From positions 1-42,542 of the forward strand of contig JAYEHT010000207.1 in NCBI GenBank assembly GCA_034659655.1: a DNA stretch of 42,542 nt, read 5' to 3'. The DNA is from Candidatus Aerophobota bacterium (GTDB lineage Bacteria > Aerophobota > Aerophobia > Aerophobales > JAGGXI01). Under the pieces are notes generated by a model. That model saw only the letters and a list, made by a program, of their open reading frames with translations. It was not told where the DNA came from and searched no databases. Shown piece after piece: positions 14,837 through 36,353 of this stretch. Each line of letters begins with the position of its first letter. Within the stretch, counting starts at the first letter, position 1. Both the position numbers and the translations under genes were made by a program.

Positions 14837-15132
14837 TTGTTTGTAGAGTTTACGCAGAAATGATTCTTAAATTAGCTCATAGTATAGTAAAACCGATAAT
14901 AAAATAGGGGTAATTATAGAAAGAACAACATCGAAAGATTCAGCTAAAGTAGAACACCTTCTATAATTATGTCTGCTTGTTACTTATAGAAGATGAAATA
15001 AAGCAAAAATAAGCTCAGAAGAAAGCGAGGTGATAAGTAGAGACATTAGCTGATGAATAAAGGGTAAATAAAAGAAAGTTTAACAATTCGTAAGTCTCAT
15101 GAGGATGATAAATAAAAATAGATCGTGAATAT

Positions 15133-17568
15133 TTGGAAGGGGGCTGGACAACGAAGAGAAAGTGCATCGTAATAATCTTACTCAGCTTATTTATTGTATG
15201 TTTACTTGCTCTTTCCGGTGCAGCATACCTTTATAGGAAGGAGAAAACCGGTACAGAAATTTTTGCTGTGGGTCTTTATGAATATGAACTCAAGAATGTT
15301 TATCGTGTCTTGGGCAATGAGGAAGAGTTAGCATTGGGAGAAGAAGGTTTAGCTCAAGGCTGGTCCGGTGAGGAAAGTCTTCGGCTATACCTGGATGGAT
15401 CTGTCCGTTATCGTCGGCGAATCACTCTCAGTTATGATTCAACCGAAGAGGAGGAGACTGAGCGACTGTGGGCAAAACTTGCCCGGGGAGCCAGCTACCT
15501 TTTTTACGGGAAATACCAACTCTCTTTTCCCGATAATAAATTTATTGGGGAAAACAAGAGTCTTTATGGCCCTGAACTTCATCTTGAGGGGAAAAGGAAT
15601 TTGTTTACCGGAAGTTTTACTGAGGTGAAAGGACTCTTTGCCCGGGATGAGATACCAGCGGATGGCAGCTCCACTTATTTCGTAAAGCTCGCCCCGATGG
15701 TGGTAGGGAGCGAAATAATATGGATTGAGGCAAGAGACCCTATTTCGGAAGTCGTTGTTTCTAAAACTCATATGGAGCGAGATATAGACTATACCATCGA
15801 TTACGATACCGGAGAGATTATCTTTACTGAAGCCATCCCTTCCGTTACTCCAGAGGGAAATATTAACTACATCGTGGCTGACTATCAGTATCTTCCCGAA
15901 GCTCCCGGTTACAGAAGATATCTGGTTGGTTTACGCAATACCTATAAAATATCGGATAGGTTAAGCCTGGGAGCAGGTTATCTTACCCAATACGATGATA
16001 GAGGCTCTTCCACTCCAGAGTTAGCTGGTAGGAACCCTTCTCAGAATTCGGCTTGGAGCGTGGGTATCCAATACAAACTTGGCGAGGAGCTGGTTTTAAG
16101 TACCGAATACGGAAAGAGTCAACAAGACGAAGATATCTTAACCAAGGGGAATGAGGAGGAAAGATCTGCCTATAGAGGTGAATTAAAGGGAAAACTCACT
16201 AATCGTTCGGAGGTTCTTTTAGGCTATGAAAGGATTAATCCTGAATTTTTCTCTCTCAACCCCGAGGTAGAGGATGACCTTGAAAAATATGAGCTTTCTC
16301 TCTCTCATCAACTGACTGATAAACTAAAACTTAAGGGAGGCTATGAATACTCCCACGATAATATTTTAGAGGAGGAAGAGCCAACCACTACTGAAAAAAC
16401 CTCTGATTTGAGTCTTACCTATGAATTAGGTAAATACAAGTATCTCGGTCGAGTGGAATTTGAGGGTCTCTATCGTTTTAAAGACGAGGAAAACGACTGG
16501 TATCCCCGAGAGGGCAGCCAGTCAAAAATTTCTTCTCTAAAACTTGGTATGGAGCCTTCGGAGGTTTTTAGCTCCTTCGTTAAATACGAACATGAGGATA
16601 TATACGGTAAGCCAGAGCTACAAATTACCTCTAAAAAAGATACCTCCGCCTTCGGCCTGGAATATAGTCCCACTGAGAAACGTTCTCTCACTACTCAAAT
16701 TCAGTTCATAGATGAGCGAGATCTCTTAACAGGAGAAAAGCCCTATACTAAAAAGTTTCTTTTCCAGGGGGAAAGGGATCTTACAAGATCGCTGGATGTA
16801 TCCCTTAACTATGAACATTCAGATACGGAAGAGGGGAAAAGGTTTACTAAAGAAAGTGATGTCACCTCGGCAAAACTGAAATATACTCCTTCCGAGCAAC
16901 TCATCTTTTCCTTAGGAGAGGAGACTTCGAGGACTGTGAATCGCAGTGCTGATCCTATTAGCACTGAAAAAAGGAAGAAAGACACTGCTGGTATTGAATA
17001 CGCTCTTACTAACTATTTTCTCCTCTATGCAGAATACGAAAAAGAAGAAGAGAAAACTTTAAACCCCCAGAGTTCCAAACTCAGCGAACGATTAGTAGCG
17101 AGACTTCCTTATGAGCCTTCCCATAGATTTTCTCTAACCCCAGGATACGAATACGAGGAGACTCGGGAGACTTTAGCCCAGGAGAGTCTGGAAAGAGAAA
17201 ATATTCCCTCTTTAAAGATGGACTGGTTTCTCACAGAAAAATGGGAGCTCTTTACCAATGTGGAGCTAAAAACGGTAAAGAGTATCCTTCCTCCTCCAAA
17301 GGTTAAGGCGGTTACTGCCACTGGATTGGGAAGAATAACTTATAAGATCTTGGATCGGTGGGACCTTATGGGTCAGTATGAAGAAACTAACCAGATAGAG
17401 CCCCAAAAAAGTAATAAGCAAATCACTGCCTTTGAACTGGGCTATGAAATCACCGATAATATAAGGATTGGTCTGGGACATAGAAGTATTAAATTTACAG
17501 ATGAAGCTATTCCTGAGAATGATTATCAAGCCGACATGGCTTACCTTCGGCTAACGGGCAAGATTTAA
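15133..17568 (+). CDS. Putative outer-membrane beta-barrel protein of unknown family (N-terminal membrane anchor, ~230-aa soluble region, long beta-strand-rich region)
   Basis: 811-aa uninterrupted ORF. The hydrophobic segment is CIVIILLSLFIVCLLALSGAAYL. From about residue 260 onwards there are runs of alternating hydrophobic residues with recurrent GYEY/YEYE/LSLTYEL strand-turn patterns. The start is a TTG with no clear SD, so the 5' end is uncertain. Confidence 0.5.
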   Translation: MEGGWTTKRKCIVIILLSLFIVCLLALSGAAYLYRKEKTGTEIFAVGLYEYELKNVYRVLGNEEELALGEEGLAQGWSGEESLRLYLDGSVRYRRRITLSYDSTEEEETERLWAKLARGASYLFYGKYQLSFPDNKFIGENKSLYGPELHLEGKRNLFTGSFTEVKGLFARDEIPADGSSTYFVKLAPMVVGSEIIWIEARDPISEVVVSKTHMERDIDYTIDYDTGEIIFTEAIPSVTPEGNINYIVADYQYLPEAPGYRRYLVGLRNTYKISDRLSLGAGYLTQYDDRGSSTPELAGRNPSQNSAWSVGIQYKLGEELVLSTEYGKSQQDEDILTKGNEEERSAYRGELKGKLTNRSEVLLGYERINPEFFSLNPEVEDDLEKYELSLSHQLTDKLKLKGGYEYSHDNILEEEEPTTTEKTSDLSLTYELGKYKYLGRVEFEGLYRFKDEENDWYPREGSQSKISSLKLGMEPSEVFSSFVKYEHEDIYGKPELQITSKKDTSAFGLEYSPTEKRSLTTQIQFIDERDLLTGEKPYTKKFLFQGERDLTRSLDVSLNYEHSDTEEGKRFTKESDVTSAKLKYTPSEQLIFSLGEETSRTVNRSADPISTEKRKKDTAGIEYALTNYFLLYAEYEKEEEKTLNPQSSKLSERLVARLPYEPSHRFSLTPGYEYEETRETLAQESLERENIPSLKMDWFLTEKWELFTNVELKTVKSILPPPKVKAVTATGLGRITYKILDRWDLMGQYEETNQIEPQKSNKQITAFELGYEITDNIRIGLGHRSIKFTDEAIPENDYQADMAYLRLTGKI

Positions 17569-17716
17569 GCCTTTTATGAGACGCATTGCAACTTCGTTTA
17601 ATCCTCAAAAAAAGCTTTTGACAAACTGGAAGGTAATAATAAGTCAGGTTTCCCCGTAATATGTATAAGGAAGCTATTTGAGATTTTTATAAGAAAAGTT
17701 AAAATAAGAGGTTAGT

Positions 17717-20497
17717 ATGAACACAACTCCCAATATTATCGGGAAAATTTATGGTTCGCAGGATAATAGTATCTCTCTCAGAAATTCAATTGTAGAGAAA
17801 CTGAAAAAATTAGCTATAATACTTGTTATAGGAAGTATTATTGTAAGTTTTGTTGCGTCGGCCGTTTATGCCTGGCCCTCCAGCTGGCGGGCTTATACCA
17901 AGGGTGGAGATTTACTGTGGGATCCAAAAGATCAAAACCCGTCCGCGATAGATCTTAGAGGGGATAGTGGTTCCGCCGCTGGATTCTACTACCAGGATTC
18001 CAACGGACTTTACTTTCGACAAAGAGTAAATGCCAATCCTTCAGGTCCAGGTATATTTGCTCAATATGCATGGATGGTTCTCATAGAAAGCGATGGAGAT
18101 TCAACCACTTATGAGTGGTCACTGGGAGTGAATGGTATAGGTGAAGAAGTAGAATTATGGGAAAATACTGTTAAAAGCAACAGTCCTGGTGATTTGGCTG
18201 AAATCCAAAAATGGACGGGACTCACAGGAACTTATGCCCAAATTGTACTAGCTGATTCAAGTTTTGACAGTGATACAGACTATTTCGTTGACTGGTACAT
18301 ACCCTATACTACCTTCACTTTCCTGACTGGTCTCAATGAAAACTCCACCATCAGGTTCTTTTATGGCACTTCTGCCAATGCTCAAAATATTAATAAGGAT
18401 CTTCAAGCAGGTGATCCTGGTACCCTGTCTGAGGGGTTCGGTGATGCAGTTACTCCCAGTGGCGCTGTTCCTGTTATTCCGGACGTTGAGGTAGTTGCTC
18501 CTTCTGGCCAGACCGCAAATCCCGGGGAGAGCGTTATCTATAATTTCACCGTTAAGAATACTGGCAATACCCTTGATACCTATGAGCTTATTGCTCAATC
18601 CCAGCATGGCTTGCCGGTTGGCTCTCCATCCTCTATCACTGTTTCCCCAAACGATAGCAAAACAGTAGCAGTTAGTCTGAGTGTGCCTTCAGATGCTACT
18701 GCTGGTACAACTGATGAGTTAACCCTCACCGCTACTTCCAAAACAGACCCTGGTGTTAAAGATAGTGATACCACTACCACCACCGTAGGTGTGGTTCCTG
18801 CTGTAGAGGTAAAAGCACCCTTTGGTCAGAGTGCTAATCCTGGTGATGTGATAACTTATGAGTTTGTAGTAAGCAATAAGGGCAATAGCACCGATACTTA
18901 TAACTTAACTGCTCAATCCCAGCACGGCTGGCCGGTTGGCTCTCCTTCCTCTATCACTGTTTCTGCTGGTGAGAGCAGGACCGTCACCGTTACCGTCACT
19001 GTTCCTTCAGATACTTCGGATGGGATAACCGATGATTTGACTCTAACCGCAACTTCTCAGACCGATATCGCCATCAGTGATTCTGACATCACTATCACCA
19101 CAGTCACTGCGCCGCTTATGAGTATTAATAAAACTGACAACGTAAGTTCGGCAAATGTAGGTGATAGGTTGGTCTATACCATAACTTACGAGAATACAGG
19201 GAGCGGCGAAGCGATAGCCCAAATTACTGATATTCTCCCAGAAGGAGTAACCTATGATGCGGATGACCCGGCCACTCCTTCTCCGGATGAAATTCAAGGT
19301 CAAAAGCTTATTTGGAAAGATTCCATCAGTCCGGTCGCTGAAAACAGTGACAGCTTGATAATTACTATTCCAGTAAAGGTAAACCTGGATCTGGAAGATG
19401 AAACCACCATTACCAACCAAGCTGTTCTGGATTATACGGATCTTAATGGAAATCCTCTACCTCAAAAAACTGCCGAGGACGAGACTCTAATAAGGGCTCC
19501 CCAACTTACCCTTACCAAAGAGGTTAATAAGTTGGAGGCAGAGCGAGGCGACATTCTCGTATATTATCTTACTATTAAGAATAATGGCACCGGAACTGCC
19601 TATGGGGTCAATATAATAGATACCCTCCCTCGAGGACTTTCTTACCTTAAGGGTAGCTCTGCCTTGAATGGAACTTCCATAGATGACCCTACGGGAAGAA
19701 ATCCCTACATCTGGAGTGTACCTGATATCTTGGGTAATTCCCGGATAAACTTAAGTTATAAGGTAATTGTAAGCCCCAATGCTCCTCATAAGAAAGTTCA
19801 AAACCAGGCTGAGCTTGCCAGCTCCAACGCTCCCACGATTAAAGCTATTTCATCTTTGAAAATAGTTAAGGGTAAAGGTCCCCTGGAGCAAAAGGGAACT
19901 GTCCGGGGAGTAGTTTTTGAAGATACCAATGCTAATGGGAAGCAAGATTCTGGAGAGCCCGGTCTTACCAATGTGGAAATTAGACTTGATGGACCTCGAA
20001 CGGTGAAAACTGATAATACTGGTAACTATAAGTTTGAGGAAGTAGAGCAAGGTTGGCACGTGGTAGCTCTTGATTCCCGAACTCTACCCGAGGGCTATGT
20101 GCTTATTGAATCGGATTCTAAATTTGTGGATAATCTTGCTCCTGGGCAGACAAAATGGTTAAACTTTGCCATCAGGAGCCTCCCGGGAAAAATAGTAGGG
20201 GTAGTCTTTCTTGATGCAGATAGAGATGGAAAAAGAGACCCTGGCACCGCTGGTATTAGCGGAATCAGCATAGTTTTGAATGATACCATCACTGTAGACA
20301 CTGATAAGAATGGCAATTTTGTGTTCGACAAACTTCTCCGAGGAGAATATGATGTTCGGCTGGATACTAAAAAGCTGGGAAAGAAATACCGACTCACTAC
20401 AGATGAAATTTTGGAGATTTCTCTATCTCCGGGAGAGACCATTTCTGTAGATTTTGGCCTTCAGCCAAGACCTTATCTAATTATTAAGGTGGAGTAA
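17717..20497 (+). CDS. Cell-surface repeat protein: signal-anchor, WPxSW-type N-terminal domain, 2 CARDB/NEW3-like repeats, 2 DUF11-type repeats, 2 SdrD-B/Cna-B-like domains
   Basis: 926 aa. There are tandem ~100-aa repeats (VEVVAPSGQTANPGESVIYNFTVKNTGNTLDTY... / VEVKAPFGQSANPGDVITYEFVVSNKGNSTDTY...) at about 18487-19100. DUF11-like units are GDRLVYTITYENTG and GDILVYYLTIKNNGTG. The C-terminal units GVVFEDTNANGKQDSGEPGL...TDNTGNYKF and GVVFLDADRDGKRDPG...TDKNGNFVF are typical SD-repeat B-domain motifs. Confidence 0.8.
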   Translation: MNTTPNIIGKIYGSQDNSISLRNSIVEKLKKLAIILVIGSIIVSFVASAVYAWPSSWRAYTKGGDLLWDPKDQNPSAIDLRGDSGSAAGFYYQDSNGLYFRQRVNANPSGPGIFAQYAWMVLIESDGDSTTYEWSLGVNGIGEEVELWENTVKSNSPGDLAEIQKWTGLTGTYAQIVLADSSFDSDTDYFVDWYIPYTTFTFLTGLNENSTIRFFYGTSANAQNINKDLQAGDPGTLSEGFGDAVTPSGAVPVIPDVEVVAPSGQTANPGESVIYNFTVKNTGNTLDTYELIAQSQHGLPVGSPSSITVSPNDSKTVAVSLSVPSDATAGTTDELTLTATSKTDPGVKDSDTTTTTVGVVPAVEVKAPFGQSANPGDVITYEFVVSNKGNSTDTYNLTAQSQHGWPVGSPSSITVSAGESRTVTVTVTVPSDTSDGITDDLTLTATSQTDIAISDSDITITTVTAPLMSINKTDNVSSANVGDRLVYTITYENTGSGEAIAQITDILPEGVTYDADDPATPSPDEIQGQKLIWKDSISPVAENSDSLIITIPVKVNLDLEDETTITNQAVLDYTDLNGNPLPQKTAEDETLIRAPQLTLTKEVNKLEAERGDILVYYLTIKNNGTGTAYGVNIIDTLPRGLSYLKGSSALNGTSIDDPTGRNPYIWSVPDILGNSRINLSYKVIVSPNAPHKKVQNQAELASSNAPTIKAISSLKIVKGKGPLEQKGTVRGVVFEDTNANGKQDSGEPGLTNVEIRLDGPRTVKTDNTGNYKFEEVEQGWHVVALDSRTLPEGYVLIESDSKFVDNLAPGQTKWLNFAIRSLPGKIVGVVFLDADRDGKRDPGTAGISGISIVLNDTITVDTDKNGNFVFDKLLRGEYDVRLDTKKLGKKYRLTTDEILEISLSPGETISVDFGLQPRPYLIIKVE

Positions 20498-20614
20498 TTT
20501 GAGCTGTATTACAAATTTTGCTAATTTTGAAATTTTTAAGGATTTAAAGGACTGGATAACTCATAAAGAGGTGATAGATGTTTCGGAGATAAAGTTTATA
20601 GGAGGATAGACGTA

Positions 20615-23600
20615 ATGAAAATGAGATCTAATATGGTGAGTGCATTTGCAAAGAAAAATTTGCCGTTCCGCTTTCATAAGCATCTTTCATTTTTATTTAC
20701 CGGTATTATTACTTTTTTTCTCCTTCCGGCATTATTTACTCAAATAGGTTTTTCTCAGGTGAGGATAACTGGCCCCACCGAGTTAACTGCCTGTAGTCAG
20801 GCGATCTTCACCATTGAGATTAAGAATGAAGGGCAAGTTTCTGCCTGTAATGTCATCGTAAGCGCTGAAATCCCCCCGGGGTTTGATTATATAGAGGATG
20901 ATCAGGGAGCATCTCTGGCGGATGATACACTTATCTGGACGATTGGACAACTAGAAGCAGGGGATAGATGGGTTGATTACCTTACCCTAAGGGCAACACC
21001 GGAGACAGCTAAGCCATCGGCAAAAGAAAATAGATTAGCCATCACCGTAACTTACGATTACTGTCCTGCTGAGGGGATTAATGATTTTTCTGAAGGTCCG
21101 GTTTATTCCAGCCCGGTGAAAGTTAGTTCTCCAGAATTTGCTCGACGTCTTGCTGGCCACAAAGTCGGCCAGCACAAAGTTCCCCCAACTGTCGAAGTAG
21201 AGATGACCGTCACTGCTGACATTCCCTCCCCCATAGAGAATGCCAAGCTAATTGATTATTTCCCTGCTGATTGGACTATTCTGAATTCAGGCGGTGGTCA
21301 GGTTGACCCCGTTAACCACACCATCACCTGGGACCTTGGCATACTCAGCGATTCAGTCTCTCAGAGCTACACTATCCTCAGTCCCCAAAAAACCTTACCC
21401 CCTACAAAATACTTGTTTCACTCCGAGCTGGTTTCAGGAGATTGCACAACAGCAAGCGCTGATTGGACAGTAGTAGTGGCCGACCCCACCGACTGGCCTG
21501 ACTCGTGGATTACTATTGACCAGGACCTTAATGAGAATGGGACGGAAGATGATTTGCGTGACGTAAAAACCGCCTTTTATAACTACGATGAGAACTATCT
21601 CTACCTGAGACTGTGCCTTTATGGGACTCCTGATTTCGCTGGTCCGTCTCGCTATAAGTGGTTTTTCGACCTCGGCGTAGGTGATAACCTATACATTTCA
21701 GGCAATAATATATTGGGTACTGAGTATCTACTGTTTGTGGAGGATACCAATAATGATGGCACAGGAGAGGTCTACCTTCTCGATGCTCATGGCTACGACC
21801 GATTTAGGGAATATGAGCCCAACATATACAAAACAAACCCTGGTCCAATTACTGACCCAACCATAGCTGGCTACCGATTTGATGGAAATTGCGTTGACCT
21901 GTATATCAAGCTGAGCGAATTGAAGGTTGACGGCGTGGGCAGGTCTAACCCCTCCGGCATAAACCTCACCTGGGCTACTGACCAGGAAAACCCAAACCTG
22001 GAGCAGGCGCCAATCACAGATAGAGCCAACACTTCTGATGTGCCCATCCACATAGCTCCTGTTATTGATGTCACCAAGACCGATTCACCTGACCCGGTCG
22101 AGACTGGGCAGAACATAACCTATACAGTTACCATTACTAACAGTGGTAACATAGATGTCCTCGACGACCCGAACAGCAATGAGTTTGAAGATAGCATCCC
22201 AGAAAATACAACTTATGCCACTGGCAGCATAATCGTCAATGGCACTCCCAACGACGATGATATCTCTGACGGCATAGGATATGACTCAGTAAATAATAAA
22301 ATCATCTGGAACGGCATTGTCCCTGCTGGCGGCAGTGTCACCATAAGTTTTCAGGTCACCGTAAAGTCGCCTCTGCCTAATGGCACCCAAATATCAAATC
22401 AGGGATTTGTTTGGTGGGATTCAGATGGAGACGGCGTAAATGATGCCTATGAGCCCACTGACGACCCGCTCACTACCGAGGATAACGATCCCACCATCAC
22501 CACAGTTCACTCGGCTCCACTGCTGATGATAACCAAGGATGACTGGCCTGACCCGGTCAAGCCTGGGGAGACCCTGACCTATACCATAATCTATCAAAAT
22601 ATCGGCAATGGAGTTGCCCATAATGTAGTCATCACCGAGACTTATGATGCAAATGTTACCTTCTCATCAGCTTCGCCTTCGCCTGATAGCGGAACAAACA
22701 ATCGCTGGACAATCGCAAGCCTTTCCCCTGCAGACGGGCAGCAGACGGTAACTATAAATGTCACCGTCAATGCTAACGAGGGAACAACCCTGCATAACTA
22801 TGTTAACATCACCTGTGATGAGGGGATATTTGAGGATGATACTGAGGAAACAAAGGTCAGCAGTGCTATCCTGATTTTGAGCAAGGCGGATAACCCTGAC
22901 CCTGTCCCCGCCGGCGAGCTATTGAGCTATACCCTCACCTACCAGAACATGGCAACGGACAACGTTACTGAAACCGTGATTACGGATACGCTCCCCTATG
23001 AGGTGAGCTATGTTTCAGCAAGTCCGGCACCAAACTCTACCTCAGATGGCACATTGACCTGGAATATCGGAAAGCTTGCACCAGGCGCCTCCGGCAACAT
23101 AACCATAACTGTCAGGGTCAATACACCTATAGACAGCGGGACGGTGATAACTGATAACGTTACTATTACCGGTTACCTTGGAGGTGCAGAGAAAGTCGGT
23201 ACGGATGTTGAGGAAACCACTATCATCTCGGCTCCCATCATTGCCGTTGAAAAGACCGATTCCCCCGACCCGGTTGAGGCTGGGGGAACCCTCACCTACA
23301 ACATAACTGTAACCAATAGCGGTAATGCTGATGCCACAGGAGTTAGCGTAGTAGATGACTATAATGAGACTATCCTTACCATAACGGATGCAGGTGGTGG
23401 TGTTGATAACGGTGACACCATAACCTGGGATGGAGGGATAACCATTCCCGCCGCAGGCTCCGTTTCTTACGCTGTCACTGCCAAGGTAGCATCTCCGCTT
23501 GATAACGGCATCAAGCTGTTCAATACTGTTTCTGTGGACTGTGACCAGGGGGTAACTGCCAGCACAACAGAGATTACCACGGTTCACTCGGCTCCACTGC

Positions 23601-29600: not shown

Positions 29601-32600
29601 TTTATACCGAAGATCCTCAAATTAGCCAGGGGGGAAAAAGGCTTTTTTGGGAGAGCTCCATTACTCTGGCAGGAGGTGAGCCTGTGGGTGAGTCTCTGAA
29701 CTTGAGCTTTGATATAGTAGTAACTGATGAGGCAAAGCCAGGTGTTACCTATACCAATGCTGCCTGGGCCACAGGAGAGAATCAATGGGGAGACCCAATT
29801 GAGCCTACCACCGATGAGCCTGATGATACTGATCCCGATGATTACGACGAAGTAGAATTCACCATCGTCCTTCCACGACTTCCAAAGCTTGAGTTAGAAA
29901 AGACCCAAGCTATTATACCTCCACTTCCCTGCGAAGTAGCCAGGGCTGAGTTGGAGAAGGTCTGGTTCCAAACTGACATCTCTATGTATGCATCCACAGA
30001 ACTTCTTTTCACTGGCAAAGATTTCCTCCGGTGGGCAGAAAGAAAGGATTTAACCATTGATCCATTATCACTGCGGCCAACTGGAATATCTCTTCTCAGT
30101 GCCCAATCTCACAAGTATTCGGCGAATAATATTCGTAGTCTGGTTTTTGATTCCGGGATGGGACTTAACCTTCGCTATGGCCCCAGAATAGAGCAAATGG
30201 CTAGTAAAGAAAATGTCTCTAATGAAACTGCTCTGCAAAGACTTCTGGAGAAATACGCTCAAGCCGTCGGACTTGAAAAGCTTCCTGAAAATCCTTGGCT
30301 AATTTTTGCCCCTTACGAGGGGGGTGACCCCCGATATATCCAGGAGATGAAGCCCGAAGACTGGTCAACCCGAAGGTGGCAAGACTATGACCTCGATATA
30401 GTGCCCAGTGCTCTGGGTCAATCCCTGGTAAGAGAAGTCCTTTTAGCAAGAGAACTTTTGGCTTCTAATCATACCCAGGAGGGAAAAGAAGATATACAGG
30501 GTCAATATCTGGGTAAGGATGCCTTGAGTGGATATCTTGGTCTGGTGGTGATGGAAGAGACCGCTAACAAACTATTGTTATTAGAGAAGCTCTTAGCCCT
30601 TACCAGGGAAAAAGGATACTTCCCCCACCGAATAAAAGTTAAATTTGACCTTAAAGATAAGCCTATAGATTACACAATAACTGATTCCTCAAGTCATCTC
30701 TTTGACCAAATCTCGCTTCTCTGGGGGTTGCTTGAATTTAAACTTCTCTCAGATCCTAATATAAAAGATAATTATGATCGCCTCTTTGGGAAGGGTAAAA
30801 TGTTCTCATTGGCCTTGTATGAGCTCTCTTCCAAGCTGGCCGAGAAGGTTTTAGAGAATATCTACCAGATGCACTATAACAAAGATATAGGGAGTCTAAT
30901 TGAGGTAGTTCAGCCAAGCTCCCAGATTTCTCAGTCTCAATCTATCTCTACTACTCAAGCTGGTCTTTCTCTCCTGGTTTTAGAAAGAGCTTACCATGGT
31001 CTTTATGATGATCCTGTACTACAAAAAAGAATTAAGGAACTTGCGCTCAGGCAGAGTGGATTCTTACTTAATCATCTTAGGGCACCTGAAGGTGGTTTCT
31101 ATGATGGTTATAATCTGAAAAATAATAAAGTTATCTATGGGAAGAAAAGAAGCTTAGTTTCTCAAGTAGCCGCCATTAGAGGTCTTTTAGCTACCTACAA
31201 GCTCACCAGTGATGAAAAGTTAATAGAAGTTGCCAGAAAAGTATTTGATTACCTGGAAAAAAGATTCTGGAATGAGGACTTCAGAATTTACACCAGCGCG
31301 ACCAACTCCACCATTGGCTATCGTTATACTCCTTTAAATGTTGGTTTAACTATAGGAGCTTTAAGAGAGCTGATTTACCTATCAGATAAAGCTCAAGCTA
31401 TTCATATCTTCTCCAGGCTTACTGATTTCTTTCACAACATTCTGGAAGAGGCAGGTCTTGAGCTCTCCTGGGCCAACCTTGAGGGAAAATTACCTATAGT
31501 TCAAGATTCTGGTAGAAATCAGATTAGAGAAGTAGGAGTAATTGAGGCTTCCTTTGGGGTTGCTCCCGTGCTCCAGTCAGAAATTTATCTTATCCTCCCA
31601 CCAAGAGTAAGCTTGATTAATCTTTATGAGCGAGGTCCCTGTGAGGAGAGCCAGGCTATTCTGGAAGAACCCTGGTTCGTGACAGATGTGGCTATGTATG
31701 CTGCTATAGAACTGGGGAAATATCCAGAGGAAGGGATTGGCAAGAAGATGAGAGAGTATTCAGATCTTAACCTCACCACCCTTACTCTCTCTTCCGGTAT
31801 GGGGCTACCCCTTAAATATGGACCTCTACTTTTGAACAAAGCAGAAATGAAAGGAGTCTCGGCGGAAGAGCAACTGGAGAAAGATCTTCAAGAATATGCT
31901 CGTTTGAGCAATTTAAAAGATAGGCCCAATGATTTATCTTATATATTCGCTGAATATGCTTCGGGAGATCCCCATATCAAAGAACCAAAAGCACTCAGGT
32001 GGAATCCAGACACCTTGGATAAGACTCTTAGGATGAGTGCTTTGGGAATGACTCTGGTAAAACAGGTGCTTTCTGTCAGGAATCTTCTCCTCACCAATCA
32101 TACACTTGATAATCAAGAGGACCCAGCCGGACCGTATCTGGGGAGAAGCAACCTTAAGGGTTATCTGGGACTGGTTTTAACCGCCGAAATGGTCAACAAG
32201 CTAAAGTTTTTAGAAAAACTTTTCACACTTTCTCCTCAAGGAGAGTACTTACCTCATCTGGTGAAGGTCACCTTTGATGATGAAGGAAGACCGCTGGACT
32301 ACCAGATAATCGATGCATCGAGTGACCTTTTTGATCAGCTCTCCCTCCTCTGGGGATCAAGTGAACTCAGAAGATTTGCTGATCCTAAGATAGAGGATAA
32401 CTATAATAAGCTTTTTGGTGAAGGCAAACTTTTTCCCTCTGAATCTTATGAGCTTTCTACCAGCCTTGCCCGGCTTGTCTTTGAGAACCTCCTGAAAATG
32501 CATTACGATAAAGATTTAGGGACATTGGTAGATAGAGCTGTCGAAGGAGAGAAGATGCGGCGAATTTCCACCATAAACGCTGGTCTTGCCATCCTGGCAC

Positions 32601-33583
32601 TTAGAAGTTTTTACGATAGCTTTGCTGATGAACCTGAACTTCAAAAAGAGGCGAAGAATCTTATAACCTCACAAACTAAGTTTATTATAGAGAAGCTAAA
32701 GGATAAGAGAGGTGGTTTCTACAGTAGCTATGAGGAATCCGGCTTGCAATCTGAACCTTTAGTGGGGGATAAAACTCTCGCTTCCCAATCAGCAGCTATC
32801 AGGGGACTCCTCACCGCCTACCGGTTGACCAAAGACAAAAAATATCTGGAACAGGCAGAAAAGGCATTTGATTACTTACAGGCCAACTTCTGGGATAAGA
32901 ATCTCGAGGTCTATAAGAATAAACCTGAGGAAATAGCCGAAGAGCTCGGATATTCCTATTCCCCTCTGGATGCGGGTCTTACTACAGGAGCCTTAGAAGA
33001 TCTTGCCAGTCTTTCTTCACCCATTAAGGCTGACCTTATTCGCCTCTATCTTACTAAATTCCTCCAGAAAGTGGTTGATAAAGCAGGTCTACAGCTACCC
33101 GGGCGAAGAACTATTCGCCTCTTAACTCCCTATCCTCGGATAGAAGAAGAATACTTTGCTCCGGTCATGGCCTCTCGAATAAGTTTAACTAGTCTTATTA
33201 GAAAGATTAGGAAAAAATTTGCTCAACCCGAAGATATCATTATATACACTATTACTGTTAAAAATTTAGGAGAAGACATCGCTTATAATGTGGTAGTAAA
33301 GGATATCTTACCTCTCGGGGTAACTTACATCGCCTCCGAGCCGGAAGCCAGTGTGAAGGGTAGAGAGTTGAACTGGAGCCTGGGAGAGATTTCGCCAGTC
33401 TCTCCTCCTTTACATATTAAAGTTTTAGTTGCTGTTTCTTCAGAGATTTCCCAGGGTACTCACCTGCGAAACTGTGCTATTATAAGCTACACTGACAGTG
33501 AAGGTAGATACCAGCCAGTGAAGGAAGCCTGTGTAGAGGCTGAAGTTCGAGGAAAGATAGTAACCAGCTTTCCCGCCTATTAA
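20615..33583 (+). CDS. Giant (4322 aa) secreted/surface protein: signal-anchor, Ig-like units, WPxSW-type domain, more than 20 DUF11-type repeats, two tandem helix-rich toroid-like modules, terminal DUF11 repeat
   Basis: A single uninterrupted 12969-nt ORF with AGGAGG 8 nt upstream of the ATG and an N-terminal hydrophobic segment (LSFLFTGIITFFLLPALF). The recurrent motif is (T/S)K(T/A)D.PDPV..G..LTYT(I/L)T..N.G. See the sub-features below. Confidence 0.9.
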   Translation: MKMRSNMVSAFAKKNLPFRFHKHLSFLFTGIITFFLLPALFTQIGFSQVRITGPTELTACSQAIFTIEIKNEGQVSACNVIVSAEIPPGFDYIEDDQGASLADDTLIWTIGQLEAGDRWVDYLTLRATPETAKPSAKENRLAITVTYDYCPAEGINDFSEGPVYSSPVKVSSPEFARRLAGHKVGQHKVPPTVEVEMTVTADIPSPIENAKLIDYFPADWTILNSGGGQVDPVNHTITWDLGILSDSVSQSYTILSPQKTLPPTKYLFHSELVSGDCTTASADWTVVVADPTDWPDSWITIDQDLNENGTEDDLRDVKTAFYNYDENYLYLRLCLYGTPDFAGPSRYKWFFDLGVGDNLYISGNNILGTEYLLFVEDTNNDGTGEVYLLDAHGYDRFREYEPNIYKTNPGPITDPTIAGYRFDGNCVDLYIKLSELKVDGVGRSNPSGINLTWATDQENPNLEQAPITDRANTSDVPIHIAPVIDVTKTDSPDPVETGQNITYTVTITNSGNIDVLDDPNSNEFEDSIPENTTYATGSIIVNGTPNDDDISDGIGYDSVNNKIIWNGIVPAGGSVTISFQVTVKSPLPNGTQISNQGFVWWDSDGDGVNDAYEPTDDPLTTEDNDPTITTVHSAPLLMITKDDWPDPVKPGETLTYTIIYQNIGNGVAHNVVITETYDANVTFSSASPSPDSGTNNRWTIASLSPADGQQTVTINVTVNANEGTTLHNYVNITCDEGIFEDDTEETKVSSAILILSKADNPDPVPAGELLSYTLTYQNMATDNVTETVITDTLPYEVSYVSASPAPNSTSDGTLTWNIGKLAPGASGNITITVRVNTPIDSGTVITDNVTITGYLGGAEKVGTDVEETTIISAPIIAVEKTDSPDPVEAGGTLTYNITVTNSGNADATGVSVVDDYNETILTITDAGGGVDNGDTITWDGGITIPAAGSVSYAVTAKVASPLDNGIKLFNTVSVDCDQGVTASTTEITTVHSAPLLMITKDDRPDPVKPGETLTYTLTYQNTGNEVAHDVVIADYLPADVTYISASGTLSFSDRTLTWDIGDLSPQVGEQTLTINVTVNSPLPDGTTLENTANIWCSQDVGSYITESTTVHSAPLLMITKDDRPDPVKPGETLTYTLIYENTGNAVAHNVVITETYDPNVTFSSASPLPDSGTNNTWTIPSLSPTDGQQTITIEVSVISPLADGTILNNYVTISCAEGVSDDDSEGTIINSEAILILSKADYPDPVPAGNLLTYTLTYQNTGTATTTGTVITDTLPNEVTYVSATPAPSSISGKVLTWEIGDLAPDGSHTITIETRVNSPLPDGTKIRNRASITSSLGVGADVEDTTVVSAPILSIEKTDSQDPVEGSGTLTYTITIANSGNADATNVVVTETYDVNFAFSSATPAPDAGTNNQWTFAIIAAGASKTITITGTALLKGEASLINTVSFTSDNAGGGSVTETTGVISANLEVTKTDTPDPVIAGNILSYSITVTNLGPSDAQNVVVSESYDTNFIFSSATPAPDTGTENQWTLATIASGATETITITGTVSASASGSLSNTVALTSDTADPNTDNNTVTEPTVVNTSADLLMEKSGPATGTAGTNITYTLTVTNLGPSDAVDVSVTDSIPTGTEWVSDTSLGAYDPATGVWTIGNLTAGSTTSLDITVKILSGTTDSLVNAAVVSTTTSDPDTTNDTASVTTTVNTSADLSITKIDSPDPVIAGTELTYTITVTNLGPSDAQDVVVTDPLPEELNNAQYSTDNGLTWSPYTGSVSLGTLTSGGEVSFLIKANVDPAVAQDTVLSNTTTVSSVTPDSDSTNNSATEPTTVNTSADLIMAKTGPTSGTAGETITYALTVTNNGPSDALEVAVTDAIPTGTEWVSDTSGGAYTPATGIWTIGKLAAGSSVSLDITVKILSGTTDSLVNTAVVSTTTFDPDTTNNEAAVSTTVNTSADLVISKSDSPDPVVAGETLTYTLKVTNNGPSDAQNVVVTDTLPAGLSNAQYSLDNGANWNPYPGSVSLDTTPYPGSTGFLIKADVDNNIAPGTVLSNTATVNSDTYDSNPNNNKGTQDTTVITPILTITKDDYPEPVKPGETLTYTLIYENTGNAVAHNVVITETYDPNVTFSSASPLPDSGTNNTWTIPSLSPTDGQQTITIEVSVISPLADGTILNNYVTISCAEGVSDDDSEGTIINSEAILILSKADYPDPVPAGNLLTYTLTYQNTGTATTTGTVITDTLPNEVTYVSATPAPSSISGKVLTWEIGDLAPDGSHTITIETRVNSPLPDGTKIRNRASITSSLGVGADVEDTTVVSAPILSIEKTDSQDPVEGSGTLTYTITIANSGNADATNVVVTETYDVNFAFSSATPAPDAGTNNQWTFAIIAAGASKTITITGTALLKGEASLINTVSFTSDNAGGGSVTETTGVISANLEVTKTDTPDPVIAGNILSYSITVTNLGPSDAQNVVVSESYDTNFIFSSATPAPDTGTENQWTLATIASGATETITITGTVSASASGSLSNTVALTSDTADPNTTNNTVTEPTAVNTSADLLMEKSGPATGTAGTNITYTLTLTNLGPSDAVDVNVTDSIPIGTEWVSDTSLGAYDPATGIWTIGNLTAGSTTSLDITVKILSGTTDSLVNTATVSSITDDPDTINDTASVTTTVNTSADVLITKSDSPDPVIAGETLTYTLTIANNGGPSSALNISITDTLPAGVTYVSDTSGVTPTVSGSDYTWNFTGTNSGPAGLTDEDKDSFADDLTPNASFSLTITVKVDANYTGTSLSNTATVSSDTYDPNPANNSATETTYVLLKPSLSIEKHVIPSSGYPGDTFTFTLVVKNTGEILVDPVPVSDTVPVALSQPFEATPSASSVVGQNIKWDNVGPLGPGDSVTLTYKTQAQPGYTGVYYNTARVMGTTPEGEIITHEARVPVTILKCSPALITKKEIVKISPEIIRFSFTVQNVSNCTAYNIDISDTLPSGFKYLSASTYLSWPGGIYTEDPQISQGGKRLFWESSITLAGGEPVGESLNLSFDIVVTDEAKPGVTYTNAAWATGENQWGDPIEPTTDEPDDTDPDDYDEVEFTIVLPRLPKLELEKTQAIIPPLPCEVARAELEKVWFQTDISMYASTELLFTGKDFLRWAERKDLTIDPLSLRPTGISLLSAQSHKYSANNIRSLVFDSGMGLNLRYGPRIEQMASKENVSNETALQRLLEKYAQAVGLEKLPENPWLIFAPYEGGDPRYIQEMKPEDWSTRRWQDYDLDIVPSALGQSLVREVLLARELLASNHTQEGKEDIQGQYLGKDALSGYLGLVVMEETANKLLLLEKLLALTREKGYFPHRIKVKFDLKDKPIDYTITDSSSHLFDQISLLWGLLEFKLLSDPNIKDNYDRLFGKGKMFSLALYELSSKLAEKVLENIYQMHYNKDIGSLIEVVQPSSQISQSQSISTTQAGLSLLVLERAYHGLYDDPVLQKRIKELALRQSGFLLNHLRAPEGGFYDGYNLKNNKVIYGKKRSLVSQVAAIRGLLATYKLTSDEKLIEVARKVFDYLEKRFWNEDFRIYTSATNSTIGYRYTPLNVGLTIGALRELIYLSDKAQAIHIFSRLTDFFHNILEEAGLELSWANLEGKLPIVQDSGRNQIREVGVIEASFGVAPVLQSEIYLILPPRVSLINLYERGPCEESQAILEEPWFVTDVAMYAAIELGKYPEEGIGKKMREYSDLNLTTLTLSSGMGLPLKYGPLLLNKAEMKGVSAEEQLEKDLQEYARLSNLKDRPNDLSYIFAEYASGDPHIKEPKALRWNPDTLDKTLRMSALGMTLVKQVLSVRNLLLTNHTLDNQEDPAGPYLGRSNLKGYLGLVLTAEMVNKLKFLEKLFTLSPQGEYLPHLVKVTFDDEGRPLDYQIIDASSDLFDQLSLLWGSSELRRFADPKIEDNYNKLFGEGKLFPSESYELSTSLARLVFENLLKMHYDKDLGTLVDRAVEGEKMRRISTINAGLAILALRSFYDSFADEPELQKEAKNLITSQTKFIIEKLKDKRGGFYSSYEESGLQSEPLVGDKTLASQSAAIRGLLTAYRLTKDKKYLEQAEKAFDYLQANFWDKNLEVYKNKPEEIAEELGYSYSPLDAGLTTGALEDLASLSSPIKADLIRLYLTKFLQKVVDKAGLQLPGRRTIRLLTPYPRIEEEYFAPVMASRISLTSLIRKIRKKFAQPEDIIIYTITVKNLGEDIAYNVVVKDILPLGVTYIASEPEASVKGRELNWSLGEISPVSPPLHIKVLVAVSSEISQGTHLRNCAIISYTDSEGRYQPVKEACVEAEVRGKIVTSFPAY
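23999..25330 (+). repeat. Intragenic direct repeat, copy 1 (1332 bp)
   Basis: Compared line by line with 26885-28216 (offset 2886 nt = 962 codons). I found one difference, at 24066 (T versus C). Confidence 0.95.
26885..28216 (+). repeat. Intragenic direct repeat, copy 2 (1332 bp)
   Basis: See copy 1. The identical antisense ORFs in the track (24454/27340, 24853/27739) confirm the 2886-nt offset. Confidence 0.95.
29888..31475 (+). other. Helix-rich toroid-like module 1 of the giant protein (residues about 3092-3620)
   Basis: It is paralogous to module 2, with helix-pair motifs DSSSHLFDQISLLWG, ISTTQAGLSLLVL, GGFYDGY, SQVAAIRGLLATYKLTSDEK, FDYLEKRFWNED and YTPLNVGLTIGAL. The fold assignment is inference. 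Confidence 0.45.
31613..33110 (+). other. Helix-rich toroid-like module 2 of the giant protein (residues about 3667-4165)
   Basis: Motifs DASSDLFDQLSLLWG, ISTINAGLAILAL, GGFYSSY, SQSAAIRGLLTAYRLTKDKK, FDYLQANFWDKN and YSPLDAGLTTGAL. The fold assignment is inference. Confidence 0.45.
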
Positions 33584-33758
33584 TCCATTAATTATTGGCG
33601 AGTGAACTCCAAAAATTGTCCGATGATTCTTAGCAACTCCTATCAAAGACAGAACACTGAAACCGAGATGGACGAAGTGTTATCCTTTTTAAAGTCGGAG
33701 TGGAGTAATCCAATGGTTTTCCTGGGAAATTTTCTTAAAGAAAAGGGGGATTATGTAA

Positions 33759-34316
33759 ATGAAAAAGATAACCTGGTTAGTAGTCTTAATCCTGGTCGTT
33801 AATGGAGGCTTTGTTGTCAGAGCTCTTCCAGCTCAAGAGACCTCGCCACCAGACATAGAGTTTTCTGAAGAGCTGTGGGATTTTGGAACTATCAAGGAGG
33901 GAGAAAAGGTAACCCATACGTTTGAGGTGAGGAATTTAGGAGGGGCTAAACTTGTGATCGGTAAAGTAAGAACTTCTTGTGGATGTGCGGCTGCCCTGGT
34001 TTCTTCGCAAGAGGTTGCTCCGGGTGGGAGTGGTCAAATCAAAGTAATTTTCGACTCCTCGGGATATAAAGGGAAGATTAGTAAGAACATTTATGTTGAA
34101 TCAAATGATCCTGACGAACTTCGAAAAGTACTTACCATAAAGGCAAATGTTGAGGTCTCACCAAAACCCACTATTAAATTAATGGAAAATAGCTGGGATT
34201 TTGGATTGATTACTGAAGGGAGGAAGCTTACATACATCCTCTCAGTAAAAAATACGGGCGAACAAGAATTAGTGGTTAGCAAGATAAGCACATCTTCTCA
34301 TTATACTCATTTTTGA
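33759..34316 (+). CDS. DUF1573-repeat protein, 5' portion (signal peptide, one complete DUF1573 unit, a second unit cut by a stop)
   Basis: Signal peptide MKKITWLVVLILVV. The first unit is WDFGTIKEGEKVTHTFEVRNLGGAKLVIGKVRTSCGCAAA...YVESNDP. The second unit starts WDFGLITEGRKLTYILSVKNTGEQELVVSKISTS and then hits TGA at 34314. Confidence 0.65.
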   Translation: MKKITWLVVLILVVNGGFVVRALPAQETSPPDIEFSEELWDFGTIKEGEKVTHTFEVRNLGGAKLVIGKVRTSCGCAAALVSSQEVAPGGSGQIKVIFDSSGYKGKISKNIYVESNDPDELRKVLTIKANVEVSPKPTIKLMENSWDFGLITEGRKLTYILSVKNTGEQELVVSKISTSSHYTHF

Positions 34317-34367
34317 GGAGATCTCAAATCAAAGTATGACAAATTATTTTTTTTCTGAGTCCCATAA

Positions 34368-34792
34368 GGTCTGAAACATTTCATTTCTTATGACTCCACC
34401 GGACAGAAAGGAGTGGTGAAAGAGTACCTTTGTATCGATTCCAACGACCCTTTCAGGAAAACCGTAGTTTTTCCCATCACTGGCTACGTAATAGAACCAA
34501 AACCGGAACTTACCATCTTGCCGATTTTTTTAAATTTGGGAACTGTCAAACAGGGCGAAAAATGCACGGCGATAATCGAATTAAAAAACCGGGGAGAGAA
34601 AAAATTGAGATTGTAAATATTAATAGCTCTTCTAAATTGATAACCGTCACTCCCTCCTCAATAGAGATGGGGTCCGCTGAGGAATCGAAAATTGATATCA
34701 CTCTGAATCCCGGCAAAGAAACTGGCCAGATAGAAGAGTATCTTTACATCACTATCGCCCTTCCTATAGAGGTAGTGATTAAAGAGAGGTAA
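34368..34792 (+). pseudogene. Continuation of the DUF1573-repeat gene, disrupted by in-frame stops and a 1-nt frameshift
   Basis: In the same frame as 33759, this resumes as YDSTGQKGVVKEYLCIDSNDP... and runs into a third unit, FLNLGTVKQGEKCTAIIELKNRGEKK. The frame then shifts in the A6 run 34599-34604 and continues IEIVNINSSSKLITVTPSS... to the stop at 34792. Confidence 0.5.
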
Positions 34793-34796
34793 AATA

Positions 34797-36353
34797 ATGG
34801 GGAGACCGTTAATTTTTCTTAATAATACTCTATCTATCTTTCTCTTTTTAACAGTAATACTCTTAAACGTAGGTGCGCCGAGAATTTCCAAAGTCTTTGC
34901 TTTACCAGAAGGTAAAGTAAGAATGTTTATGTTCTATGCAGAAGATTGTCAGCATTGTCATTCCATAATTAATGAACTCCTGCCGGAGCTAAAGGAAAAA
35001 TATGGACCGATAATTGAGACAAAGTTATTTGAGATAAACGAGCCTGAAAACTATGACTTCTGGGTAGAGCTGGAAAAAGAGTGCGGAGATACGGAAAATG
35101 AGGTTCCTACAATATTCATCGATAATTATGTGCTGGGTAGTTGGGAGGAAATAGAGGAAAATCTGGAGAACATAGTCAAGCAGTCTATTCTTAAAGGAGG
35201 GTGTGACTGGCCTTCACTCCCAGGGGTAACAGTTGCTGAAGTTGAAGATTTTAGTCCGACCAGTAAAACTATTTATTTAGCTTACTTTTCCCAGCCGGGA
35301 TGTAAGGAATGTGAGCGGGCGCATTATATAATAAAGAATCTAAAGCTAAAATATCCCAATTTAAAGGTGAAGGAATACGACCTTTCTCTTGGGGAAAATA
35401 AAGAGTTAGAAGTTGCTTTATGTATGAGATATGGAGTTCCAAAGAGAAAATGGCTGGTGAGCCCGGCGGTCTTTATAGGTAAAGATTATCTGTTAGATAA
35501 AAAGATTAGTGAAGTTAATTTAAAAAAGATACTTTTGAAATACAGGCCGGTAGGGTCGCATCCTCCCCGGGAGAGTGTAGAGAGAGAACTTGCCCGGGCT
35601 AAAAAGGCTCTGGTAGGTGAATTCTGGTCCTGGAGGCCCCTTACGGTTATGGTGGCTGGCTTGATAGATGGCGTTAATCCCTGTGCTTTTGCCGTCATCA
35701 TATTTTTCGTATCCTGGTTAATAATTATTGGACGGAAAGGTAAGACAATATTGGCTGTAGGTTTAATCTACACTCTTGCCGTGTTCCTGGCCTATCTTCT
35801 GATTGGCATAGGGGCCCTCAGATTCGTCCAGGCACTGGTAGTTTTTCCATCAATTTCAGTAATAATCTATTCTCTCACGGTAATGGTTGCTTTAGCACTC
35901 GGTTTTTTTAGTCTGTATGATTATTTCAAGGCAAGAAAAGGTGAATGGAAAGAGATTAAACTTCAATTACCAGAGTTTTTAAAGAAAAGGATTCATAAGA
36001 CGACCCATCAATTTATGGGGTCCGATGCTAAGATGAGGACCCATCTGGTAGCAGCATTTGTGGTAGGATTTTTGGTATCCTTATTTGAGTTTCCCTGCAC
36101 AGGGCAGATCTATCTTCCCACCATAGTCTTTGTTACTCAAATGCCCGACTTGAAAATCAACGCCTTGAGCTACCTGATACTTTACAATCTTATGTTTATC
36201 ATTCCTCTGGGAATTATACTGGGGTTTACCTATTGGGGAACATCTGCGCCCCGGTTCGTTCAAATTTTGGAAAAGAATACAGGCCTGGTAAAAATATTAA
36301 CTGCTCTCTTTTTCTTTGGTTTAGCTGGATACTTAATCTATGCTATCCTGTAG
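34797..36353 (+). CDS. Membrane thiol-disulfide oxidoreductase: two thioredoxin-like CxxC domains fused to a DsbD/CcdA-like transmembrane domain
   Basis: 518 aa with an N-terminal anchor. The CxxC motifs are CQHC (FMFYAEDCQHCHS) and CKEC (FSQPGCKECERA). The C-terminal polytopic domain has the two conserved membrane cysteines (DGVNPCAFAV and FEFPCTGQIY) typical of the cytochrome c biogenesis/DsbD transmembrane family. The gene starts 4 nt after the DUF1573 stop. Confidence 0.75.
   Translation: MGRPLIFLNNTLSIFLFLTVILLNVGAPRISKVFALPEGKVRMFMFYAEDCQHCHSIINELLPELKEKYGPIIETKLFEINEPENYDFWVELEKECGDTENEVPTIFIDNYVLGSWEEIEENLENIVKQSILKGGCDWPSLPGVTVAEVEDFSPTSKTIYLAYFSQPGCKECERAHYIIKNLKLKYPNLKVKEYDLSLGENKELEVALCMRYGVPKRKWLVSPAVFIGKDYLLDKKISEVNLKKILLKYRPVGSHPPRESVERELARAKKALVGEFWSWRPLTVMVAGLIDGVNPCAFAVIIFFVSWLIIIGRKGKTILAVGLIYTLAVFLAYLLIGIGALRFVQALVVFPSISVIIYSLTVMVALALGFFSLYDYFKARKGEWKEIKLQLPEFLKKRIHKTTHQFMGSDAKMRTHLVAAFVVGFLVSLFEFPCTGQIYLPTIVFVTQMPDLKINALSYLILYNLMFIIPLGIILGFTYWGTSAPRFVQILEKNTGLVKILTALFFFGLAGYLIYAIL

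Follow-up and report, generated by a model that had tools for sequence, protein, structure and literature searches.

A predicted giant outer-membrane barrel encoded beside putative isopeptide-type fibrillar surface proteins in a Candidatus Aerophobota bacterium

We analysed a 42,542 nt stretch of DNA from a Candidatus Aerophobota bacterium (contig JAYEHT010000207.1, here called the window), and report on the locus at positions 15133–36353, which comprises five plus-strand open reading frames (ORFs), A to E. The locus is a composite, in which two unrelated modules, A-B-C and D-E, stand side by side. With a probability of roughly 0.55, we interpret A-B-C as the split form of a so far undescribed system that anchors or translocates isopeptide-stabilised fibrillar adhesins at the outer membrane. 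The interpretation draws on conserved gene order, gene fusions, a barrel model of protein A and the absence of a match to any known family; under it, proteins B and C would arrive at the cell surface through or on A, and a small domain of A would act as a plug. The five genes are as follows.

15133–17568, plus strand: gene A, 811 amino acids (aa), TTG start; acidic, secreted outer-membrane protein
17717–20497, plus strand: gene B, 926 aa; cysteine-free, putative barrel-proximal stalk protein
20615–33583, plus strand: gene C, 4322 aa; putative fibre protein
33759–34792, plus strand: gene D, three-domain DUF1573/OS_HP2/choice-of-anchor-D pseudogene, with an ORF at 33759–34316 (185 aa)
34797–36353, plus strand: gene E, 518 aa; putative membrane thiol-disulfide oxidoreductase

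The initial annotation had described five consecutive plus-strand genes separated by gaps of 148, 117, 175 and 4 nt. The coordinates stood, as did the first three gaps (A-B, B-C and C-D, respectively), but D proved not to be one intact gene, with three in-frame stops and a 1 nt deletion, and the 4 nt gap separates a remnant ORF (34430–34792), rather than D itself, from E. A single N-terminal hydrophobic segment is present on each of the five products, as had been claimed, and E has five more transmembrane-like segments.

Protein A and its family

Protein A has a pI of 4.9, in keeping with its earlier description as acidic, and a C-terminus that reads ...AYLRLTGKI. An AlphaFold2 model built from a 31-sequence alignment shows a giant barrel, with a predicted local distance difference test score (pLDDT) of 87 and a predicted template modelling score (pTM) of 0.75. 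The DSSP string of the model gives eight long strands at aa 41–175, a small beta domain at aa ~176–243, and then thirty long strands that continue to the C-terminus. All loops are 2–15 residues in length, the longer ones following odd-numbered strands. The model suggests that about 38 strands form the barrel and that the N- and C-terminus both face the periplasm; it would place the small beta domain in a periplasmic turn, like the plug of fimbrial ushers. This domain, which follows strand 8, is the most conserved part of the family and carries the motif RD..DYxIDYxxGxIxF..GNPxxIVVxYxY.

Comparison of the model with the PDB by Foldseek gave generic giant-barrel matches only, at template modelling (TM) scores of 0.2–0.3 (MtrB, Deinococcus SlpA, SprA of the type IX secretion system (T9SS), BtuB, FimD and LptD). 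Most barrels among the best fold matches contain a plug, a partner protein or a substrate; since the A barrel is wide and its loops are short, its lumen needs filling. In Pfam and NCBIfam, A gave partial, generic barrel matches (Porin_4, DUF2490, BBP2 and MtrB_PioB), and a PDB sequence search with the A-family profile found nothing below an E value of 0.08. Apart from a generic likeness to barrels, A thus matches none of the families in Pfam, NCBIfam or the PDB, and these hidden Markov model, PDB profile and Foldseek checks place it in no known porin or usher family. Identity as a TonB-dependent receptor or Oar-like plug-barrel was rejected, as A has no Plug match and has eight long strands before the small domain. 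The start of the gene is uncertain (15133–15160): the ORF begins at TTG, homologs begin ~7 codons later (MKRC...), and there is no ATG at that point in the window.

Close homologs of A number only five, are 60–92 % identical and are all metagenomic. A search of 1.84 billion representative proteins with the A profile found about 1985 related clusters (at 50 % identity), 886 of them at E ≤1e-10. In most members, which are 1000–5700 aa long, the whole A module occupies about 700 aa at the C-terminus; we take the module to start with the conserved region near aa 100, to include the motif given above, and to run through the barrel to the end of the chain. Of 122 representative clusters with a complete module, 16 are standalone and 86 have an N-terminal extension of >300 aa, and in 92 of the 122 the chain ends ≤30 aa from the barrel. 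Upstream of the barrel, SdrD_B-like domains occur in 81 of the 86 extended members and DUF11-like domains in 63. Pfam analysis of 31 fused members identified DUF11 in 21, SdrD_B in 21, CarboxypepD_reg in 10 and OmpA in one. Further upstream, the passenger ends carry F5/8-type-C (discoidin), Big_1, Invasin_D3, FlgD_ig and beta-propeller domains. In the fused proteins, the domains found ahead of the barrel are the ones with which protein B ends, and this Rosetta-stone relationship links A to B.

A scan of GTDB genomes with the alignment of close A homologs found nothing. A degenerate DNA pattern for DYxIDYxxGxIxF located 120 loci in GTDB, 92 of which encode A-family members. Cultured carriers include Geomobilimonas luticola, Geomonas azotofigens and Sphingopyxis sp. 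H115, which make the family testable; carriers known as metagenome-assembled genomes (MAGs) belong to the Gamma- and Alphaproteobacteria, Planctomycetota and Latescibacterota.

Three further observations concern the family. Flavobacteriaceae and other Bacteroidota (L025 2061–5492, L065 822–4319 and about 60 more loci) encode conserved proteins of ~1150 aa with DYxIDYxxGxIxF, which belong to no Pfam or NCBIfam family and match the A-family profile more weakly, at positions ~75–640 (E 1e-15 to 1e-26). In Sphingopyxis sp. H115 (L132 4550–7463) and at L038 5295–7926, three same-strand ORFs (159–434 aa) precede a fused SdrD_B-barrel gene, and two of the three end in a DUF11 domain that stops at profile position 84 of 114. 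This arrangement looks like a pilin-type multi-subunit variant, in which a strand donated by the next subunit possibly completes the DUF11 fold. Finally, locus L140 has a paralogous A-family gene (4872–6155, minus strand; about 29 % identical to A over 136 aa), convergent with and 2.3 kb downstream of a D-E pair whose E is 80 % identical to that of the window.

Gene order and the putative stalk and fibre proteins

An A-like gene, a B-like gene and a DUF11 giant follow one another in the same order in three distant lineages, with gaps of 0–96 nt and A homologs about 21 % identical to A.

L013 (a Candidatus Zymogenaceae MAG): A-like 809 aa, B-like 748 aa, giant at least 2077 aa
L015/L016: A-like 828 aa, B-like 958 aa, giant 3984 aa
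L017: A-like 794 aa, B-like 632 aa, giant 3595 aa

The B-like proteins of all three contain DUF11, SdrD_B and CarboxypepD_reg. In a delta-proteobacterial MAG from GTDB (L069), a standalone A-like gene is followed by a 604 aa gene product with DUF11 and two SdrD_B domains. In a closer relative (L001; A 64 % identical), A is directly followed by a 1907 aa B/C hybrid, which combines B with the helical domain of C, and then by UvrD. The proposed barrel-plus-cargo arrangement thus gained support, with A as a dedicated partner of the Ig-repeat proteins: the order A-B-C is kept at a distance, and the A module is fused behind DUF11-SdrD_B. Synteny of all five genes in relatives was also checked, and holds for A-B-C in the three distant lineages but not for D-E after C.

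Protein B comprises, in order, a long signal peptide, an N-terminal domain of unknown type, two Ig domains (VWA7/FixG_C-like), two DUF11/CLIPPER domains, two SdrD_B/CarboxypepD_reg domains and a terminal amphipathic strand. Its C-terminal half aligns end-to-end with the B-like proteins of L013, L015, L017 and L069 (E 1e-26 to 1e-39), all of which also end in a short amphipathic strand. Protein C has at least 23 DUF11/CLIPPER-type domains, a DUF11 being its last domain, and 15 of its repeats begin K.D.PDPV. DUF11 scores reach 89 bits over two stretches in B and 1203 bits over 23 stretches in C. Both proteins also have signal peptides, and so combine predicted secretion with the tandem PF01345-type domains of a CLIPPER/DUF11 stalk. 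From their sequences, B and C are predicted to be isopeptide-type (CLIPPER/DUF11, SdrD_B) fibrillar surface proteins with a Lys-Asp-Asn bond. Cysteines are absent from B and number 17 in the 4322 aa of C. Two further features of C are listed here.

30482–33214, plus strand: two tandem alpha-helical, (alpha/alpha)6-like domains (aa ~3290–4200)
23954–28609, plus strand: internal duplication, 23954–25723 versus 26840–28609, offset 2886 nt, 97 % identical

The helical domains show weak similarity to cellobiose 2-epimerase/AGE, GH127, GH76 and C5-epimerase and are kept in the 1907 aa protein of L001; we propose that they form a putative glycan-binding or glycan-processing head. The duplication is exact over about 1.26 kb (24068–25330 equals 26954–28216), and is either very recent or an assembly artefact of a repeat-rich gene.

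Neither B nor C has a C-terminal hydrophobic or sorting segment, the C-termini being ...RPYLIIKVE and ...KIVTSFPAY, respectively. In agreement with the initial annotation, no LPXTG, PEP-CTERM, RTX or autotransporter family match was found for either protein, nor a match to the T9SS C-terminal domain families (Por_Secre_tail/CHU_C), and neither has the features of cargo of T9SS, the type I secretion system, sortase or exosortase. Likewise, no gene for a secretion ATPase, usher, sortase or TpsB-like protein is present in the window. A long region precedes the signal-peptide core of both proteins, of about 30 aa in B (17717–17870) and about 22 aa in C (20615–20760). Such a region recalls the extended signal peptide region (ESPR) of large type V cargo; an ESPR-type assignment was rejected, as there was no ESPR Pfam match.

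These features led us to the following model. Protein A would leave the cytoplasm through Sec and form, in the outer membrane, a very large barrel, the lumen of which may be closed by its own small beta domain, as an usher-like plug, and/or filled by the SdrD_B/CarboxypepD_reg C-terminal end of B. Protein B would be the barrel-proximal stalk, docking by that end in or on A, and C would be a distal 4322 aa fibre with two (alpha/alpha)6 glycan-directed head domains. The fused relatives would be autotransporter-like, with the passenger N-terminal and the barrel C-terminal, and the window and several distant lineages would represent a split, two-partner or usher-type form.

A broader proposal, which we put forward tentatively, is that the A family is the outer-membrane part of a distinct and widespread secretion or anchoring pathway for isopeptide-bonded adhesins or pili in diderms, unrelated to type V secretion, chaperone-usher and T9SS. 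Here, Ig-like domains, folded or partly so, would pass through the ~38-strand barrel with its usher-like plug, and the barrel would afterwards hold the base of the stalk. Fused, split and multi-subunit versions of the system would exist. The carriers would be Desulfobacterota-like bacteria, Geobacterales, Alpha- and Gammaproteobacteria, Planctomycetota, Latescibacterota and possibly Bacteroidota.

Several points weigh against the interpretation of A-B-C as an anchor or translocon for surface adhesins. A peptidoglycan-binding OmpA domain lies between SdrD_B and the barrel in a few fused members (L021 and L089; 1 of 31 by Pfam), and TPR repeats follow the barrel in one member (P0138). At least part of the barrel-adjacent chain is therefore periplasmic in these proteins, and a periplasmic tether would account for this just as well. 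In the closest relatives, L005 and L007, A and the B ortholog are not adjacent, a 3.6 kb sigma/anti-sigma cassette lying between them. The surface exposure of B and C is only inferred, and C is a putative distal fibre. The strand count, the barrel closure and the position of the small domain of A were read from the DSSP string alone. The region was present in no RNA run searched, and no described barrel-DUF11/SdrD_B system was found in the open-access literature, to which the search was limited.

The tether alternative would make A only an outer-membrane anchor, with a periplasmic Ig stalk (B and the fused extensions) linked to peptidoglycan or the inner membrane, like OmpM/SlpA or OmpA, and with C as a periplasmic or sub-membrane layer. 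Besides the OmpA and TPR domains, it is favoured by the place of Deinococcus SlpA among the best folds for A, by the SlpA_C match precomputed by Pfam for homolog P0003, and by the lack of a recognisable outer-membrane translocation signal in B and C. In addition, C matches Chlam_OMP6, a DUF11-related domain that is carried by chlamydial OmcB. We nevertheless judge this alternative unlikely. OmpA is rare in the A family, and A itself has no SLH or other peptidoglycan-binding domain. The passenger ends bear discoidin/F5-8-C, Invasin_D3/Big_1, beta-propeller and (alpha/alpha)6 domains, as is usual for binding proteins and enzymes outside the cell, and a 4322 aa rod of >23 Ig-like domains was judged far too long for the periplasm.

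It is also conceivable that A is a general large-pore porin or an abundant structural outer-membrane protein, that its adjacency to DUF11 genes reflects co-regulation of envelope genes, and that B and C are secreted by another, unlinked machinery, for instance the type II secretion system. The weak Porin_4, DUF2490 and BBP2 matches point this way, as do the absence of an export ATPase from the window and the location of the A gene in L003–L007, where it adjoins groES-groEL and an extracytoplasmic function (ECF) sigma factor gene. The Pfam matches are partial and generic, however, the barrel module is covalently fused to DUF11-SdrD_B stalks in most family members, and the A-B-C order is kept at about 21 % identity. 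Fusion and kept order are hard to explain without physical association, and we regard a simple porin as improbable.

The cassette that separates A from B in the closest relatives (L005 2712–6120; L007 3054–6462) encodes an ECF sigma factor, a 349 aa protein, a zf-HC2/CBM48 anti-sigma-like protein, a 173 aa protein and a DUF5654 protein. Its last two genes recur directly after D-E in L011 and L012 (78.6 % nucleotide identity). The cassette may point to regulation by envelope stress and to reshuffling of genes between these loci.

The putative redox pair and the borders of the locus

Gene D is disrupted by stops in its frame at 34314, 34356 and 34365 and by a 1 nt deletion near 34601. Only domain 1, with its SCGC motif, is intact here, in the 185 aa ORF, whereas intact D proteins in relatives have 344 aa and three DUF1573 domains (L144, L145 and L140) or 239 aa and two (L009 and L012). 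Despite the disruption, family membership is clear: D scores 120.6 bits against PF07610 (cut-off 26.1) and 108.2 bits against the OS_HP2 (seleno)protein model NF041425 (cut-off 100), and also matches the choice-of-anchor-D model. Selenocysteine recoding of the TGA at 34314 was rejected: its context is unlike the CGC/UGC motif, a TAA comes after it, and the relatives, which read through, have other residues there. In place of the core of the middle domain stands a short element.

34298–34386, no strand assigned: short multi-copy element in place of the core of the middle domain of D

The window sequence comes from brine metagenomes, and in four brine-metagenome runs this element has 5–10 times the depth of its flanks and many contigs diverge at 34298, 34347 and 34381–34386; independent Logan contigs of these runs agree with the window sequence at the broken D and elsewhere. 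The element occurs once in the window and has modest folding (z = –2.2). It may be a miniature inverted-repeat transposable element-like repeat; identity as a clustered regularly interspaced short palindromic repeat (CRISPR) or known RNA was unsupported, given the single copy in the window and no Rfam match.

Protein E consists of a signal or anchor segment, two thioredoxin-like domains (CQHC at aa 51 and CKEC at aa 169) and a CcdA/DsbD-like transmembrane domain (Cys296 and Cys434). Its homologs number >583 and are spread across phyla. D lies directly upstream of E in relatives, and the two are naturally fused in P0020, P0030, P0031, P0034 and P0075. Two contexts of distant E homologs were examined, where E lies among copper-chaperone (HMA), thioredoxin, arsenic-resistance and DsbD genes, with no DUF11 giant nearby. 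D-E is an independent, widespread, putative extracytoplasmic thiol-redox pair, sometimes fused, in which E may act as a CcdA/DsbD-type membrane electron conduit serving the CGC motif of the DUF1573 protein. No characterization of a DUF1573-DsbD pairing was found in the open-access literature, and the natural fusions with Trx/DsbD suggest a redox role for the widespread DUF1573 (OS_HP2) domain.

The initial annotation had instead joined all five genes in one arrangement with periplasmic redox support; on that reading, D-E would maintain the disulfides or the redox state of the secreted giants. In its favour, all genes point the same way, the gaps are short, and C and D have no terminator-like site between them. 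Consensus promoter and terminator scans were uninformative. The giants of the distant operons are cysteine-rich (48–69 Cys in the parts read), and the paralogous A-family gene of L140 lies 2.3 kb from D-E. This single system is nonetheless largely refuted. D-E occurs separately across phyla and in unrelated contexts, it is absent next to giants in relatives, and in this genome D has decayed to a pseudogene. In L009, L012 and L144, D is not preceded by a C gene; in relatives with E 92, 77 and 75 % identical, 472, 290 and 594 nt 5′ of D, respectively, hold no trace of the 3′ end of C, compared with a C-D distance of 175 nt in the window. Conversely, L001 has UvrD, and no D-E, after its DUF11 gene. 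With no cysteine in B and 17 in C, there is little substrate for a disulfide system. The adjacency of D-E to C is lineage-specific and probably arose from rearrangement near an insertion sequence (IS) remnant of IS91-like type at the left border of A-B-C.

12899–13157 and 14583–14841, no strand assigned: arms of a 259 nt inverted repeat, 94 % complementary, at the left border of A-B-C
13625–14077, plus strand: truncated IS91-type Y2 transposase fragment between the arms

One arm lies upstream of a minus-strand flavin-reductase/rubredoxin gene and the other upstream of A. A piece of about 100 nt of the repeat (88 % identical) recurs in L009, at 118–216, where it precedes the DUF1573 gene. The repeat could be an IS end, a shared regulatory region or an invertible segment. 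The IS91 remnant within the repeat at the A-B-C border and the piece of repeat ahead of D in L009 together indicate that this lineage has undergone rearrangement. Insertion of the whole of 13185–33665 relative to L009 was considered and weakened, since the shared ~100 nt belongs to an inverted repeat that occurs twice; it stands as a hint of rearrangement only.

Further upstream, the minus-strand block 1023–12641 is an anaerobe iron and oxidative-stress set. It encodes an ARMT1-like phosphatase, an iron-dependent repressor (Fe_dep_repress), FeoB as two ORFs, two rubrerythrins, a DsrE-like protein, NifU, cysteine desulfurase, desulfoferrodoxin, Hsp20, peroxiredoxin, a PAS protein and a flavin reductase-rubredoxin. 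Downstream of E, a PAS histidine kinase/receiver gene (36494–38140) is absent from the syntenic region of L009.

Comparison with known systems

The D-E pair resembles DsbD/CcdA conduits in the two-cysteine transmembrane domain and two CxxC thioredoxin-like domains of E, and in the OS_HP2 CGC motif of domain 1 of D. Unlike those conduits, E scores below the DsbD model cut-offs (DsbD_2 18.3 bits, cut-off 24.9; NF001419 30 bits, cut-off 330).

For A-B-C, the logic of barrel plus passenger is already known from type V secretion and from ushers. As in types Va and Vb, the passenger is N-terminal and the barrel C-terminal (fused members) or the two are encoded by adjacent genes (window), with Sec dependence, no ATPase and long signal peptides on large cargo. 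The A barrel is unrelated to these in sequence, with ~38 predicted strands versus 12 (Va) or 16 plus POTRA (Vb), and A has no Autotransporter, ShlB or POTRA match in Pfam or NCBIfam. The passenger is made of isopeptide-type Ig domains, not a beta-helix, and translocation by A itself is our proposal.

Chaperone-usher systems (FimD/PapC) share with the window a barrel protein of ~800 aa with a small beta domain between strands (beta-6 and beta-7 for the usher plug) and Ig-like subunits encoded alongside. FimD and PapC are among the fold matches of A, and the Sphingopyxis-type operons, with several small DUF11 subunits before the barrel gene, add to the resemblance. However, the predicted strands number ~38 versus 24, the subunits of the window are giant multi-domain proteins, and TM-scores to FimD and PapC are 0.2–0.36; A has no Usher (PF00577) match, and the window has no periplasmic chaperone gene.

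MtrB of the MtrAB/PioAB systems is the best Foldseek match of A (6r2q_B, E 9e-10) and the top weak partial match in NCBIfam and Pfam. These systems also pair a large, short-loop barrel, the lumen of which is filled by a co-encoded partner, with a third protein on the surface. The partners in the window are Ig-repeat proteins, in contrast, and no multihaem cytochrome or CXXCH-rich neighbours are present; A scores 22 bits against TIGR03509 (cut-off 240) and 19.6 against PF11854 (cut-off 23). OmpM/SlpA proteins, such as the 30-strand Deinococcus SlpA, are likewise giant barrels and among the top folds (7zgx_A and 8ae1_A). Unlike them, A lacks an SLH domain and a coiled coil; SlpA_C was matched by the homolog P0003 only, and not by A.

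DUF11 has been renamed CLIPPER and, with SdrD_B, comprises predicted isopeptide-bonded stalk domains of fibrillar adhesins, Gram-negatives included; one CLIPPER domain has been solved with its isopeptide bond (PMC12617251). B and C are built of the same elements (DUF11/DUF7507/DUF7619 and SdrD_B), whereas the anchor of the Gram-negative example described there is an OmpA-like domain (PMC12617251). Neither 'outer membrane' nor 'barrel' occurs in that text, so that no barrel partner is described (PMC12617251). How Gram-negative and other diderm bacteria display giant DUF11/CLIPPER adhesins is largely unexplained, and the window proteins have no known sorting signals. The A family numbers about 2000 clusters, is covered by neither Pfam nor NCBIfam, and is fused to or encoded beside the DUF11-SdrD_B stalk base; it therefore represents a testable candidate for the missing anchor or translocon.

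Finally, Solan et al. 2021 predicted, from sequence and contacts, a superfamily of single-chain barrels with 38 and 40 strands, which exceed every solved barrel in size; they assigned no function and reported no link to DUF11 or SdrD_B (PMC8346858). Compared by strand count only, A resembles these barrels, with 38 strands in its DSSP string. If A does serve as an anchor or translocon for the fibrillar proteins encoded beside it, this would provide a function for one of the largest predicted single-chain outer-membrane barrels.

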